DNA of 64,000 bases from Eledone cirrhosa (Eukaryota), in the NCBI GenBank assembly GCA_964016885.1, contig OZ024758.1, positions 9,486,001 through 9,550,000 on the forward strand, written 5' to 3'. Below are positions 379 to 51,004 of the stretch, in pieces. A model generated the notes under the pieces. It was not told the DNA's origin. It worked only from the letters and a program-made list of their open reading frames with translations, and made no database searches. The translations under genes were made by a program, and so were the position numbers. Position 1 is the stretch's first letter. Each line of letters starts with the position of its first letter.

Positions 379-741
379 TATATATATATATATATATATA
401 TATATATATATATATATATATATATATATATATAGTCGAATCGAAGTCAGTGTTGCAGCATATGTACAAACTTTATTGGCATATTACAATTGTTTCGATA
501 TCAGACCTCGTAACAGCATTGAGTGCTCCGAACCGCGCGCCGCCTGTAACTGTAGTTACACACACACACACACACACACACACACACACACACACAGATA
601 TATATATATATATATATATATATATATATATATATATATATATATATATATATATATATATATATATATATATATATAGAGAGAGAGAGAGAGAGAGAGA
701 GAGAGAGAGAGAGAGAGAGAGAGAGAGAGAGAGAGAGAGAT
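379..741. repeat. (TA)n, (CA)n, (TA)n, (GA)n microsatellite cluster
   Basis: Direct reading. Confidence 0.95.
434..556 (-). mobile_element. Penelope-like 3' terminal fragment with hammerhead 3' half
   Basis: Minus strand GAAA-CAATTG-TA (485-496), then AATAAA and a short tail running into (TA)n; no CTGANGA upstream. Confidence 0.45.
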
Positions 742-1751
742 GAGTGTGTGTCTTCTGGTTCATAAACAGAACCAAAATGTATAATTCACGTGGTTGTGAA
801 GTCAGCTTCATAGTGACAAATCATATTTCATGCTGACAAAAACAAAGACCACAGAAAAGTGTACTGCAGTGAAATATCCTACAATTATTCTATTTTCTTC
901 GTCTAACAAACCTGTAATTACATTTGTTTGAAACGCAGAATGAAATTTCGGCGGAAAATTGGAAATAAATCTTTTCCTTTTCACATTATAAATGTATTAG
1001 ACAAAAGTTTATTGATATGAAGCCAGTTAAATAATTCAGTTTTAGCTATCTCCACCACCCTGAACCAAAACAAATATTTGACTAAATAAGTGTATGGTCG
1101 GGTGAGATGTTTAACTCCTTTCTAATATAATGCTTTCTTTATATGTTCTGTCCCGGGAAAACAATTATGTTTTTCTTTCCTTTTTAGTGCTTACGAAGGC
1201 TCTAAAAGTGAAACGTCAAAATTACTATAGGGGGAAAAATATAAAAAATAACCTTGTCTATAGCCAATATCTTGGTAAACTGAATAGAAAGATACAAGTG
1301 AACCAATATGGAAGCCAACAAAGATTCAAATATTTTCGACTAAAGGTTGCTTCAATTTTAGTTGACCAAATTCAACGACTAATATCTTATTCTTATTTTT
1401 ACTATATGAATGATTTTATTAATTATTATATGATGAAATAGTAAAGTTAGACAAAAAAATATTAAATGAAACAAAAAGAGGAAAGGAAAAGAAGACAAAA
1501 AAAAAAATAGAATGAAGCAACGAAAGAAAAGGAAAGGGGAAGAGGGAGGGGCAAACTGGACCCCAGGGGTGATCAGACTCAGAAGTTTACCTTACTATTT
1601 TTCAGGTGTTTGATAGACGGAAGGAATGAAAGTCATTGTAGATGTGGACGATACATAGTTTTGTGTGGCTTTTGATGGTTGACTTTTGGGACAAGAGTAT
1701 TTGCCTTGTGTTGGACAGTGGTTGTGTTATTCAAGGTTGTTATGAGCCGGC

Positions 1752-1905
1752 GAATTGGCAGAGCCGTTAGAACGTCAGATAGAATGCTTATCGATCCCAC
1801 AAGGATGACAAGCAAAGCTAACCGTGACGAGATTTGAACTCAGAACGTAAAGAGCCTTAACTAAATGTCACAAATCATGTTGACCGACGCTCTACAGTCA
1901 ATCCA
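1752..1905. mobile_element. Degenerate SINE-A-related pieces in opposite orientations
   Basis: Head-like TTGGCAGAGCCGTTAG on plus; GATTTGAACTCAG (reverse B box) and Nin-like remnant on minus. Confidence 0.55.
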
Positions 1906-3104
1906 TTGCACTCTGACGTAACTAACAGCTGACATCATCTTCGTAGCTCTAAATATTCTATCTATCGCCTTAACTGTTTACAAATAGTAATTAACATTAA
2001 CAACACTGTTTCAATGTCTGATGGGATTTTAAAATTCAGTTAAATTTATCAGACAACAATTGATATAAAACTTAATCGAAGTCAAATTACAAAATAATTC
2101 CTTGTCTTTTAAAGTTGAATAATAAATTATTGATTTTTTTGTTTCTTTTTTCCACGACAGAGAGAGAGAGAGAGAACAACGTAAAAGTAAATCTGATCAT
2201 AAAGTATTTTATAAAAAAACAATTGTTGTTGTGAAAGCATGTAATATTTCAAACAAATCATTTTGTATCAATTCATTATTGTCAAAAACATCCAAGAAAA
2301 TGATAACATTCAAGTTAAAAGGTCAACATCATAATTTATCGGGCAAATAAAAATCTATACTGAAAATTCTGATGTTAAATTGTTATAACTCTATTTTACA
2401 TAAACATGAGGCAAATGCTGACATTTAACACATATGCATGAATATTGGAATTGTCTAGTTCGTCATATGAGTGTTCTACTTGTTCGACCAACTGAACTAC
2501 CCTCTCTCATTTAATCATTACGTAAGTGGCTGAGTATTCCGCAGATAGGTGTACACTTAATGTAATCCCATCGAACCGAACCAGCGTGAGATTATGTGTG
2601 AGAAGGTTTGGCCCTCAAGCCAAAGGCACAGTCAACGGGTTTGTGGATCGGCATGTGAGTATCCCTCGCTTTGAGTACTTCTCCCTTTCTCTCTAGTCAA
2701 TATAAAGGGGAGACATGGATCACGTAAGAATGGAAACCACTGAAATGATCTCACAAGTGGATGAGGGATTGAGTGTTATATATGATAATTGAATTCCTAC
2801 ATTGATGTACGGTGACTAGCGATGGATAGACCAGCATACTGCTCAGCCTTCGTAATGAAGTCCCTAAAGGCTCAGTACTATTCCCCCATGATCTTCAACA
2901 TGTCCGTTAAAAAAATGACAGTGCTCAAAAGAAAACTTAACCAACGTACCTCGAAGTAGTTTTGAATCTTGATTTTTGTTGTTGCGAACCAAACTCTTTA
3001 ACCACTGTCGCGCCTCCTTAAATTATTGAACAAATAAAATCATATATTTAAAAATGATCTTTTATTTCTAGGATAAAACTACATAAAAATTAAGAATTTA
3101 ATAT

Positions 3105-3293
3105 AATTGTTTCTACTTTAGGCACAAGGCCAGCAATTACCCAGTGCATTACTGGTACTTTATTTTATCGACCCCGTAAGGATGAAAGGCAAAGTTAACC
3201 TCGGCGGGATTTGAACTCAGATCGTAAAGGGACGTAACTATGCTGCAAAGCATGGTGTCCGACCCTCTACTGATATTGCCAATCCACCGCCCT
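3105..3293 (-). mobile_element. Full-length tRNA-derived SINE (family A, Nin/Deu-like domain) with 20-bp TSD
   Basis: A box TGGCAATATCAG, B box GAGTTCAAATCC, GCCTTTCATCCTTACGGGGTCGATAAAAT domain; TSD AATTAAGAATTTAATATAAT at 3088-3107 and 3294-3313. Confidence 0.9.
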
Positions 3294-3490
3294 AATTAAG
3301 AATTTAATATAATAAATTTTTTTAAGCTTATTTTTTTCATATTTGAATTTCATTTGAATTTAATTAGTGTAAAATTTTACTTATGTAATAGGGTCCGGGA
3401 AAGGGACCATAAGCAATACTAACATGCTCCTTTAAGAATCAACAAATGTTAGTTTGTCCCCCTCACATTTTTAAGGCAAACGAGGCCTCT

Positions 3491-48468: not shown

Positions 48469-49157
48469 ATATATCCAACTTATATTCATCCAACTGAAAA
48501 TAAGAGCCATTCCTACTTTAATTGTTCAATAGATTTACTTTAACATGAGAAAGCATTATATATATATATATACACACACACATACATATGAGCATACATG
48601 AAATGGACAAGCAATGGAAAACCAGGGACATGTCCTTTTTATCATCAGCTGTTAGCTGGAGATTACAATGATTTCAGTGCATTAAAAACAGAACCATACC
48701 TTCCTTGTGTGTGTGTGTAAATCGCACATTTCTCTATAAAAAATGCCGTAAAAAACAATGCAACTAATTAACTGAACGTACAAAACCTCAATACAAAATA
48801 TATGGTACAATTGATGATGCCAAAGATCACCATTCAATACAATGTGTGTGTGTGTGTGTGTGTGTGTGTGTGTGTGTGATATTTTAATTTAGATTGCATT
48901 AAATAGACAGTGATTGAATGAAATAAGATATTTTATAGCATAAGACTATATTTCTGTTAAAAACTTTACATTTGATATACTATTTATAATTGTTCTCAAC
49001 AGCTACCAGTCCATAAAATAATAGCACACTTTAATAATTCATTTACTGATCAATACTCAAAAATATAATGATAATTATTGAATCCTATAATTCACTGTAA
49101 GTAAACTAATTCTTTGAATACCATATTGACAAATTGGGAAGCCAGTTGTTACAATGT

Positions 49158-49320
49158 ACGGATGCCATGCTTTCCAGCAAAGTTATGTCCCTTTACGATC
49201 TGAGTTCAAATCCCGCCGAGGTTGACTTTGCCTTTCATCCTTATGGGGTCGATAAAATAAAGTACCAGTAATGTACTGGGTAATTGCTGGCCTTGTGCCA
49301 AAAGTAGAAACAATTATTAT
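49158..49320 (+). mobile_element. SINE family A, 5'-truncated, CpG-decayed
   Basis: Colinear with other copies. Confidence 0.85.
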
Positions 49321-50068
49321 AGAGAAGTAGAGATGACCACTGCAGTGTGTTGTTGCTGTATTTTTGATATGTCATTTATTCTGTTTGATGAGCTTCAAAT
49401 TATGTTTTAATGTTTTAGATCAGAAAAAATAGAGAGAAGGTGTGTACATGCTAGGTGGCCAGAGTTATATGTTTCATAAGGAAATTAATGTTTCATATGA
49501 TTAAATAAAGTAGAATTATTAAATGTAGAAAATTAAGAGCTCATTAACATGAGTTTGACTTGTCAAACAGCCTTTCTTTTATACCTTCCCAAGCATGTAT
49601 TTACAGTTTTATTGGGTGTATTATGGGCAGAAATTTGCTTACTTTTAAATATTATTCTGGAGAATTCAGCCAAGCAAATAAAAGAGTATTGATAAGATTG
49701 TTGTATGTAACATGAGACCTCAGCTTGTCTACTAAAGCAACTGATACATAAATTTACACTGCGTGTGTGTGTGTTTAAACTCATACACACATTTCAAAGC
49801 ATAAATCAAAAAGTAAAAATACAGAATACAAAAAATAGAAGATATGTGTGTGTGTGTGTGTGTGTGTGTGTGTGTGTGTGAGAAAAGGTAGATAAGCTTT
49901 TGTTTATGTATATCATGAAAGAATGTTTAAAGAAGAAAGCTGCTTACCAGAGAGTTTGACTCGACGGCATCCTTCGAATCGTATAACAACAACAAAATAC
50001 CCGGAATAACACCCCCAAACCTGGAACCAGGGAGGAAACCACACACCACACACTATACACGGACAAAC

Positions 50069-50491
50069 TGCAACTGCAGAAATCCCACCAATTGTCCTCT
50101 ATTGGGTAAATGCTTGTACAAAAATATAATTTACCAATGTGGGGTAAAATCTAAACTGGGGATATATAGATATGTGGGTTCCACTTTGAATATTTTCAAT
50201 AAAAGATGGTATGTGCACACCCACACATTTAAAAACCCCAGTTTATCTAGATCTACAGTCCTAGCAAAAGAAAACTGGGATCTCAAATGCGCTAATATTG
50301 AATACACACTACAATGGTCCATGCTAAAATTCGCTCGTCCATACCAGACTGAAAGACGCCCCTGTGAACTATGTTTGGTCGAAGTAATTGAATTAGTGAC
50401 CGGAAAGGACCTTCTAAATTCCCAGCATGATAGGATATTTAATTGCAAACACAAGGTTCTAAAAACCTTCGCTAAATACAAACTGGACTAG
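50069..50491 (+). CDS. GIY-YIG endonuclease domain of a Penelope-like element (partial)
   Basis: CNCRNPTNCPLLGKC, NIIY...YVGST...FNKRWYVH, STVL..W, CELCLVE, LLN, CKH. Confidence 0.85.
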   Translation, partial: CNCRNPTNCPLLGKCLYKNIIYQCGVKSKLGIYRYVGSTLNIFNKRWYVHTHTFKNPSLSRSTVLAKENWDLKCANIEYTLQWSMLKFARPYQTERRPCELCLVEVIELVTGKDLLNSQHDRIFNCKHKVLKTFAKYKLD

Positions 50492-50893
50492 AACAAGATT
50501 CGATCCCTAATACCTAGGTTTTACTACATCCTATTTGGTACATTTCCTGTGACATTTAAACTTTTCACACCCAATGGATTCAGTAATATTCAAAATAATC
50601 TCATTTTCTTAATTCCTTTTGCACTCTAGCCTATCTTAATCTCTACCCTATCTTTCTTTGTCCCCCTCTTTATACCTTCTCTACCCCTATATAGGGTAAA
50701 CATCAAAACCTTCACCTATACCAATGGTCAAAGAATAATTGTTCCACATCATAGCACATGGATTGATAGTGTGAAACTCTTTGTCCCCACTCCTTCTCCT
50801 TCTCTCTATTATCTCATGTTATTTTTAACTTAAACAAAAATCTCATTACTGAATTCTACAGCGTAATGAATAGCTGAATTCCACTACTATAGG

Positions 50894-51004
50894 TTTTCTG
50901 ATGAAGTGTAATAAATAATTAAGTATTGCATATGATTGAACAATATATGATGTTGTCAGCATTATGTTGACAATTTATAATAGGCACGGAAACATATGTC
51001 AAAG
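50894..51004 (+). ncRNA. Type I hammerhead ribozyme with long stem II insertion
   Basis: TTT-CTGATGA-AGTG...(about 75 nt)...CACG-GAAA-CATATG-TC-AAA; GUC triplet. Confidence 0.7.

Follow-up and report, generated by a model that had tools for sequence, protein, structure and literature searches.

Predicted copy-to-copy pairing of stem III in minimal hammerhead motifs of probable Penelope-like element ends in Eledone cirrhosa

The stretch of E. cirrhosa DNA that we analysed (64,000 nucleotides of GenBank assembly GCA_964016885.1, contig OZ024758.1, positions 9,486,001 to 9,550,000; hereafter the window) contains several families of dispersed repeats with the anatomy of minimal type I hammerheads. 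These are probably Penelope-like pseudo-LTR ends in which a short stem III pairs between copies, giving rise to a domain-swapped double hammerhead with predicted cleavage activity. A palindromic stem III in Penelope hammerheads was already described in 2014 by Cervera & de la Peña (PMC4209133), and the motifs described here represent neither a new RNA class nor a demonstrated code. The genome-scale counts rather back a published, weakly tested idea, in which selection favours Penelope hammerheads that dimerise as RNA.

Hammerhead motifs in the window

Apart from family H, which is treated below, the following motifs were identified. The stem III word is the sequence between GAAA and the cleavage site UH.

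479..502, minus strand: hammerhead 3' half with the end of stem II, GAAA, CAATTG (487-492), UA and the 3' strand of stem I
7015..7053, minus strand: minimal hammerhead with the word AT (7022-7023), core CCGAAGA and a short stem I
14757..14792, minus strand: predicted hammerhead with the word CCGG (14762-14765) and the U3-A8 variant core TTGAAAA
22194..22254, minus strand: hammerhead with the word TATATA (22204-22209), inverted twin of the 22412 copy
22367..22427, plus strand: hammerhead with the word TATATA (22412-22417), intact core and an 8-bp stem I
24562..24607, minus strand: hammerhead with a doubled word, CAATTG-AA-CAATTG (24568-24581), and a weak stem II
28293..28331, plus strand: hammerhead with the word GTAC (28321-28324) and a weak stem II
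28375..28413, minus strand: GTAC hammerhead (28382-28385), inverted twin of 28293..28331
37156..37226, minus strand: hammerhead with the word TGCGCA (37166-37171) and a long stem II
50894..51004, plus strand: hammerhead with the word CATATG (50993-50998), core CTGATGA at 50898, an 84-nt stem II region and a short stem I

An intact CUGANGA core together with stems I and II was present at 22412, 24570, 28321, 37166 and 50993. The type I box order (CUGANGA or its U3-A8 variant, GAAA, UH) was found at these sites, at both inverted twins and at 14789. It was disrupted in the window copies at 485, 7022 and in family H, but occurs elsewhere in the same families. The copy at 479..502 is a chimera without a CUGANGA box, and same-family copies at loci L161 and L163 have the full core; CCGAAGA at 7022 is a U4>C change, the corresponding box being CTGAAGA in two other copies of that family (loci L036 and L047). 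Inverted twin pairs occur at 22246/22375 and 28298/28408, and also in family H. The CCGG hammerhead had been overlooked in the sequence-only reading of the window that preceded this analysis. An Rfam scan of the window at the gathering threshold returned no matches to hammerhead models, and a whole-window search for inverted repeats was dominated by microsatellites.

All seven stem III words listed in the sequence-only reading were recovered, with the CAATTG placed at 485 being off by 2 nt. The description of these as seven different words has to be revised to six distinct words and one loop, since the families at 485 and 24570, which differ in stems I and II, both carry CAATTG. The doubled CAATTG at 24570 is present as described, but it is an 8-nt duplication private to that copy: at 14 other loci of the family the word is single in 13 and partially duplicated in one, which rules out the doubling as a family feature. 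Most copies in the window are dead, truncated or inverted insertions that are not accompanied by an intact family member on the same strand, which makes them likely fossils.

Stem III words are enriched for self-pairing

The main sample comprised 138 random 10-kb loci with flanks and the ORF loci, leaving out the window and the targeted centres. Its random part amounts to 1.38 Mb (0.05% of the genome), in which rare families are under-sampled. A relaxed scan without the closing-pair filter produced many false clusters, the decoy cores giving 10-25 each at the lowest threshold. The main scan therefore required a paired 15.2-16.2 and words of 2-12 nt, by which long words of the monomer type were dropped. 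In a descriptor scan of 990 kb, the real core gave 62 matches compared to 0-3 with decoy cores or reversed sequence.

Enrichment of palindromes had been put forward as a check in the sequence-only reading, and self-pairing words were indeed above chance in the sampled loci. Complete self-pairing was seen in 23 of 28 even-word clusters, 15 of them with Watson-Crick pairs and 8 including G·U, compared to 3 of 17 in eight decoy-core scans. The central pair was Watson-Crick or G·U in 23 of the 25 distinct even-length words of the random-loci sample (p ~4e-8); 18 distinct words had a Watson-Crick central pair. All inner positions were paired in 20 of the 25 words, where 4.5 were expected. Odd-length clusters had inner mismatches in 5 of 8 cases, and 7-nt CC-NNN-GG words carry an internal U·U. 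Chance or a TA-microsatellite origin of the words was ruled out by the decoy cores and by the words that are not TA repeats.

For even words of 4-8 nt, the predicted energy of a forced-monomer stem III was +0.5 to +5.0 kcal/mol, while homodimers mostly ranged from -2 to -14. The six short words of the window combine this instability as a monomer with self-complementarity. In unconstrained cofolding of eight window sites, stem III was paired between copies completely or almost completely at five sites, partly at one and not at two. On its own, stem III is not long enough to fold, so it likely pairs with stem III of a second copy.

G·U words spread without their A·C mirrors

TATGTA had 28,960 matches genome-wide, compared to 82 for its mirror TACATA in the same flanks, and CATGTG occurred 93 times compared to 0 for CACATG among the first 100 of 1,618 matches; these large word counts stem from a small number of amplified subfamilies and do not represent independent events. 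At the level of families, the score of wobble words against mirrors is only 4 to 0 multi-locus families, with A·C appearing in two single-locus words. A tree for which the word was masked shows at least four to five switches between TATATA and TATGTA. The flanks showed no strand bias (shared variants, 29 A>G versus 31 T>C; single variants, 64 versus 55), and no A>G bias across the whole element was found.

The enrichment of self-pairing words and the spread of G·U words without mirrors suggest selection on RNA pairing at positions that a monomer cannot pair. The earlier proposal of selection on dimerisation is supported with respect to pairing of stem III from copy to copy, given the 23 of 25 central pairs and the preference of G·U over A·C, but it does not extend to a rule for all families, as GAAC and the odd-length words depart from it. 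The asymmetry between G·U and A·C provides a simple sequence test for RNA-level selection that can be repeated in any genome. A search confined to listings of the open literature found nothing on a stem III pairing code or on this asymmetry.

Families that depart from the short palindrome

The claim that stem III is always a palindrome is contradicted by the GAAC/GGAC/GAGC family and by the CC-NNN-GG words with U·U. The GAAC/GGAC/GAGC family, located elsewhere in the genome, lacks the stem III expected of a dimeric minimal hammerhead: it has 23,567 matches genome-wide, with no palindromes among the first 100. The predicted value for the GAAC homodimer was +1.4 and that for the monomer +4.6, the dimer still being lower. 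The family is linked to Penelope-like elements (PLEs) by an endonuclease 236-253 nt upstream in 4 of 21 copies. With its purine-purine centre, the family is a naturally occurring exception that lends itself to an assay.

In family H, every match in the window is a 5'-truncated or fold-back fragment without a CUGANGA box.

14024..14133, no single strand: family H fold-back in which truncated 3' halves of two hammerheads lie on opposing strands, with GAAA at 14091 (plus) and 14065 (minus) and a long stem III that contains TGAGCTCA; the CUGANGA box is missing
29867..30000, minus strand: family H 3' half, GAAA at 29986
41067..41271, no single strand: family H fold-back with only 3' halves, GAAA at 41152 (plus) and 41117 (minus)

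TGAGCTCA occurs in family H at 14049, 14100 and 29970. A CTGANGA-anchored pattern for this family had no matches genome-wide because family H uses a TTGANAA core; a full copy at locus L109 carries the U3-A8 variant core TTGAGAA. The stem III of this copy is a 5-6 bp hairpin predicted to be possible in the monomer, so that family H does not share the unstable monomeric stem III.

Links to Penelope-like coding sequence

The CATATG hammerhead of the window is preceded by a coding fragment.

49931..50491, plus strand: C-terminal fragment of a Penelope-like protein with GIY-YIG-like endonuclease, 186 aa from stop to stop, ending 407 nt before the 50898 core

Its match to Pfam PF01541 (E=0.0064) is under the cut-off; tblastn matched the fragment to further CATATG-family copies and, at 41%, to the GIY-YIG region in locus L277. 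A full element was observed at locus L271, where two CCGG hammerheads on the same strand, spaced by 4,979 nt, flank a 938-aa ORF with reverse transcriptase (RT) and GIY-YIG. The GTAC family sits downstream of GIY-YIG or RT + GIY-YIG ORFs at loci L230, L275 and L277. Four families, namely GTAC, CCGG and CATATG, which all occur in the window, and GAAC, are tied to Penelope-like RT/GIY-YIG coding sequence, and all four have the placement of a pseudo-LTR, in sense and 3' of an ORF with RT and C-terminal GIY-YIG, for CATATG with the fragment below the Pfam cut-off and for GAAC in 4 of 21 copies. RVT_1 in the three RT + GIY-YIG ORFs scores slightly under the Pfam cut-off (E about 1e-6 to 1e-5). A same-strand second copy was seen at L271 (CCGG), while the intact partners in the window are opposite-strand inverted twins. 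With its many natural variants and the intact two-ribozyme element, this genome is suited to testing the role of the ribozyme in Penelope transposition.

For the TATATA/TATGTA, TGCGCA, CAATTG, AT and H families, endonuclease matches within 1.5 kb upstream were limited to a single copy per family at most (for example 1 of 50 or 1 of 14). From their anatomy, TATATA, TGCGCA, CAATTG, AT and H would be assigned to Penelope as well. Most copies of these families are short 5'-truncated ends. Insertions that are 5'-truncated or inverted are present in the window (the twins and family H), and such structures are described for PLEs in parts of PMC8557442. A 3.2-kb tandem at locus L031 does not qualify as a complete element, since a retroelement ORF is absent and the stem III region is shortened in its three tandem copies.

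Copy-to-copy pairing and alternative explanations

In the favoured reading, two stems III would merge into a domain-swapped double hammerhead that cuts the element RNA. The partners may be both pseudo-LTR copies within one transcript of a tandem element, and selection would act at the RNA stage, on active master elements. Any self-pairing word would suffice, and words could drift by compensatory change or via wobble intermediates. Family specificity of the dimer, if any, would be a by-product of divergence in stems I and III.

The sequence-only reading had proposed that stem III differs in every family and may act as a family-specific pairing code. As a selected code, it would prevent mixed dimers of co-resident families. 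The words themselves speak against this. CAATTG, TATATA and CGATTG recur across families with different stems, and several stem II subfamilies have stem I and TATATA/TATGTA in common. Cross-compatible stem III words were counted in 16 of 496 family pairs, where 5.6-6.5 were expected under a fixed outer pair, and in 21 of 630 compared to 3.7-4.6 in a larger set. Sister families with a common stem I (TATATA or TATGTA versus TGCGCA) do have different stem III words, and identical words across families show a small, non-significant deficit (4 versus 5.6-6.4 expected); in favour of a code, too, only 3 of 630 family pairs were compatible in both stem I and stem III. However, orthogonality is the default between distinct palindromes, and a code is not needed for cis pairing inside one transcript. 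Random palindromes would show less cross-compatibility between families than these words do, so a selected code is unsupported, and we regard it as very unlikely. Stem III alone cannot be the code, since a domain-swapped dimer also needs pairing of stem I across families. A selected two-part barcode of stems I and III, insulating dozens of co-resident Penelope families from mutual ribozyme poisoning, with a stem III alphabet including G·U and tandem purine-purine (GAAC/GGAC/GAGC), appears improbable, too. If true, the dimer rule would be wider than 'palindrome' and its evolution readable from a single genome.

Heavy A-to-I editing is known from cephalopods, and the G·U asymmetry might be mutational, caused by such editing or by reverse-transcriptase bias on the sense RNA, with palindromes kept by descent and not by present dimer selection. 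Each observed wobble word can be derived from a palindrome by sense-strand A>G, and GAAC, GGAC and GAGC likewise differ by A/G. We consider this explanation very doubtful: the flanks outside the ribozyme have no strand bias, the 18 distinct Watson-Crick-centred words need compensatory double changes beyond descent alone, and site-specific editing would itself require a duplex. Hardly credible is a role of the words without any dimer, be it in the monomer fold (a protein-stabilised short stem III), as a DNA palindrome for the endonuclease or as mere resemblance to TA microsatellites. The GAAC family thrives without a palindrome, the PAc hammerhead discussed below needed protein for cleavage, monomer hairpins are possible for family H, 14-nt CAG...CTG words and one 18-nt word, and TATATA is similar to the dominant microsatellite of the genome. 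Yet in 23 of 25 even words the two central bases are complementary, although a monomer has no means of pairing them. A palindrome acting at the DNA level gives no reason for TATGTA to be preferred to its reverse complement TACATA, and the majority of words are not TA repeats.

Relation to known hammerheads

According to parts of PMC11167929, the hammerhead of the Anolis Poseidon element PAc needs the element's protein for cleavage and is dispensable for insertion in vitro. As in our families, it lies within the pseudo-LTR of an RT + GIY-YIG element; PAc was tested in vitro, whereas the families here are described from sequence. ASBVd and newt satellite RNA form double hammerheads (Forster et al. 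1988, as cited in PMC4209133) that share the unstable stem III, which is rescued by merging of two stems III, but these are viroid or satellite RNAs with canonical contacts between loops 1 and 2 and not retrotransposon ends. Small Penelope variants of Lünse, Weinberg & Breaker, as summarised in passages of two reviews (PMC6765202, PMC6466107), cleave as dimers; they, too, have a palindromic, very short stem III loop, with the partner provided by tandem arrangement.

The closest match is the minimal Penelope hammerhead, for which passages of PMC4209133 report a palindromic 15.2-16.2 and loop 3, no cleavage as monomer and low cleavage as dimer or trimer. Common to both are the type I topology, the short stem I, the palindromic 15.2-16.2 and loop, a larger stem II whose 5' base is unpaired, and the U3-A8 core variant. 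Both also occur as many divergent families per genome, mostly as single or inverted copies, with a tandem pair around an RT ORF. Compared with the main-text passages of that paper, stem II here reaches about 100 nt in some families and words extend to 8-10 nt, major subfamilies are made up of G·U-only words, and a purine-purine centre (AA, GA, AG) marks the family with 23,567 copies.

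Hammerhead motifs of the window

The window has a G+C content of 35% with plentiful TA microsatellites, and it gave no Rfam match at the gathering threshold. All stem III words (the sequences between GAAA and the cleavage-site UH) named by the sequence-only reading were found in it, and five of the named sites are complete type I hammerheads.

485: CAATTG site, only the 3' half in the window; family core intact in L161 and L163, two loci elsewhere in the genome
7022: hammerhead with the word AT, core U4>C in the window copy; core intact in loci L036 and L047
14757-14792: CCGG hammerhead, overlooked by the sequence-only reading
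22412, + strand: TATATA hammerhead, complete type I; inverted twin at 22246
24570, - strand: CAATTG hammerhead, complete type I
28321, + strand: GTAC hammerhead, complete type I; inverted twin at 28408
37166, - strand: TGCGCA hammerhead, complete type I
50993, + strand: CATATG hammerhead, complete type I; core at 50898, stem II region of 84 nt
Family H (repeat with a long stem III), window copies: truncated or fold-back 3' halves

The doubled CAATTG reported at 24570 is present in the window, but it is confined to that one copy and not a family trait. In the genome surveyed (3.0 Gb in 1,796 contigs), 22412, 485, 50993, 24570 and family H are dispersed repeats, each with at least 41-80 matches (best 40 candidates scored), and the 7022, 28321 and 37166 motifs were seen again in sampled loci. 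A full family H copy (L109) carries a U3-A8 core (TTGANAA in place of CUGANGA), and a monomer hairpin of 5-6 bp is possible in its modelled stem III. The window hammerheads are a real feature, and palindromic stem III of the dimer type is already known: the consulted parts of two reviews (PMC6765202, PMC6466107) state palindromic short stem III and dimer cleavage, citing Lünse et al.

Stem III words self-pair more often than chance

As a random sample, 138 evenly spaced 10-kb loci were scanned with the core and stems I and II as criteria. With the real core, 62 matches (28 palindromic) came from the first 99 loci, compared to 0-3 in controls (reversed sequence and four decoy cores). For a cluster test, all random loci were combined with targeted-locus flanks and 38 ORF loci, excluding the window, targeted centres, words longer than 12 nt and matches without the outer 15.2-16.2 pair; as this pair was required, the test covers the inner positions alone. 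Of the 38 resulting clusters, one large one lumped TATATA, TATGTA, TGCGCA and CGATCG, and 28 had even words with inner positions (15 Watson-Crick palindromes, 8 fully G·U-assisted and 5 mismatched). Eight decoy scans yielded 34 clusters, which implies possibly 2-7 false ones among the 38 obtained with the real core. Self-pairing in 23 of 28 even-word clusters versus 3 of 17 comparable decoy words supports the proposed selection for stem III dimerisation.

The central pair of an even word cannot form in a monomer hairpin. It was Watson-Crick in 18 of 25 distinct even words (p = 4e-6) and Watson-Crick or G·U in 23 (p = 4e-8), with pairing throughout in 20 against 4.5 expected, the words being not wholly independent because families are related. 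Forced monomer stems of even words of 4-8 nt were predicted at +0.5 to +5.0 kcal/mol, and stem III homodimers mostly at -2 to -14 kcal/mol. Unconstrained cofolding of eight window sites gave cross-copy stem III at five, partially at one and not at two. At the sequence level, these genome-scale counts add to the evidence for dimer selection in Penelope-type hammerheads.

Contrary to what had been claimed, not every stem III is a palindrome. A family of 23,567 matches, found for instance in loci L268 and L036, had no palindrome among the 100 listed (hand count: GAAC 77, GGAC 18, GAGC 4, AAGC 1), and the centre of its words was always purine-purine (AA, GA or AG). In 4 of 21 copies this family is tied to an endonuclease at constant distance; it may form tandem-mismatch dimers or use a different cleavage mode. 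In seven-nt CC-NNN-GG words, some with an internal U·U, the monomer stem is marginal at -0.6, and words of 14-18 nt as well as family H are predicted to fold alone. Self-pairing may relax where stem III is stable by itself. Long words (11-17 nt) with a central palindrome plus a bulge or mismatches occur at loci L055, L109, L139 and L154, among which is also one plain 18-nt hairpin with a non-palindromic GGGA loop.

Probable pairing at the level of RNA

Because TATGTA is the reverse complement of TACATA, decay following insertion would be expected to produce the two in equal numbers. Within the same flanks, T-NNNN-A had 73,314 matches genome-wide (the 100 listed, counted by hand: 38 TGCGCA, 30 TATGTA, 23 TATATA, 9 other), and we found 28,960 TATGTA versus 82 TACATA; a second family had 93 CATGTG and 0 CACATG among 100 listed of 1,618 matches, both counts mirroring amplified subfamilies. 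On a word-masked tree, for which thinning of 18 targeted TATATA rows had left 77 of the 95 distinct copies, TATGTA needed 8 changes, at least 5 of them forced by well-supported branches, with the bootstrap unconverged. At the family level, four multi-locus G·U families (TATGTA, CATGTG, CGGTCG, CATTAGTG) compare with no A·C family, the two A·C words each occurring at a single locus. The G·U words may also stem from sense-strand A>G change, e.g. site-specific editing, from which every wobble word is derivable; however, the flanks show no A>G bias (29 vs 31 shared variants). The asymmetry points to pairing that probably acts on RNA, not on DNA.

The 10-nt words of a U3-A8-core family (L125, L044, L147), among them CAAGGCCTTG and decayed versions of what appears to be CAGAGCTCTG, suggest a putative compensatory change inside the palindrome.

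Partner choice between families

In the proposed domain-swapped dimer, strands would be exchanged because of the type I topology: one copy would supply CUGANGA, stem II and GAAA, the other UH and the 3' strand of stem I, so that stem I would also set partner choice. A family-specific pairing code, as had been suggested, is not supported, since stem III words are more cross-compatible (21 of 630 family pairs) than random palindromes (3.7-4.6 expected). With the outer pair fixed, 16 of 496 pairs were cross-compatible versus 5.6-6.5 expected, a gap that is inflated by a null lacking wobble words. Identical words between families (4 versus 5.6-6.4 expected) showed a slight, non-significant deficit. 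Not every family has a word of its own either: CAATTG is shared by two families whose stems I and II differ. Both stems I and III were compatible in only 3 of 630 pairs, and sister families with a common stem I are told apart by TGCGCA versus TATATA. Insulation between families may thus exist, as drift by itself already predicts; a selected code is unsupported.

Link to Penelope-like elements

The consulted text of PMC8557442 calls the function of Penelope-element hammerheads unclear, that of PMC11167929 describes cleavage in the Anolis element PAc as protein-dependent and dispensable for insertion, and the consulted passages of a 2026 preprint on animal retrozymes do not mention palindromes. 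A 186-aa GIY-YIG-like ORF fragment (E = 0.0064, below cut-off) ends 407 nt upstream of the 50898 core and has homologues in other CATATG-family copies. Among 30 loci fetched from a genome search for GIY-YIG (best 150 of 10,596 candidates scored), five had a sense hammerhead motif downstream, one of them doubtful. A GTAC hammerhead lies downstream of an RT + GIY-YIG ORF at L275 and L277. At L271, a 938-aa RT + GIY-YIG ORF lies between two same-strand CCGG hammerheads spaced 4,979 nt apart, a pseudo-LTR-ORF-pseudo-LTR layout as in Penelope-like elements. No consistent ORF link was found for the TATATA, TGCGCA, CAATTG, AT and H families; from their anatomy and inverted, truncated insertions we infer that they are probably Penelope-like.

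Fold-back insertions are very frequent in family H (window 14024-14133 and 41067-41271), with the centre inside stem II and the CUGANGA half lost; in the fetched copies L052-L075, a query-biased set, this centre falls at almost the same base. Possibly the hairpin of stem II favours template switching while the RNA is reverse-transcribed. Locus L200 (G000:C10:45065973-45066644) holds a 74-bp tandem array of the 24570-family CAATTG hammerhead (eight same-strand units, several with damaged GAAA), possibly a retrozyme-like or satellite arrangement. At 37203-37676 of the window, a 159-bp triple tandem repeats the 5' half of the TGCGCA hammerhead, the extra copies having the core box and lacking GAAA and stem III. 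The 747-aa open frame at 37564-39807 (+ strand), which encodes RVT_1 (E 5e-30) together with a PHD finger, is a non-LTR retrotransposon without relation to the hammerheads. Long minisatellite arrays lie at 7612-8365 (28-bp units), 12647-13840 (49-bp), 25383-27041 (45-bp) and 30249-31193 (35-bp).
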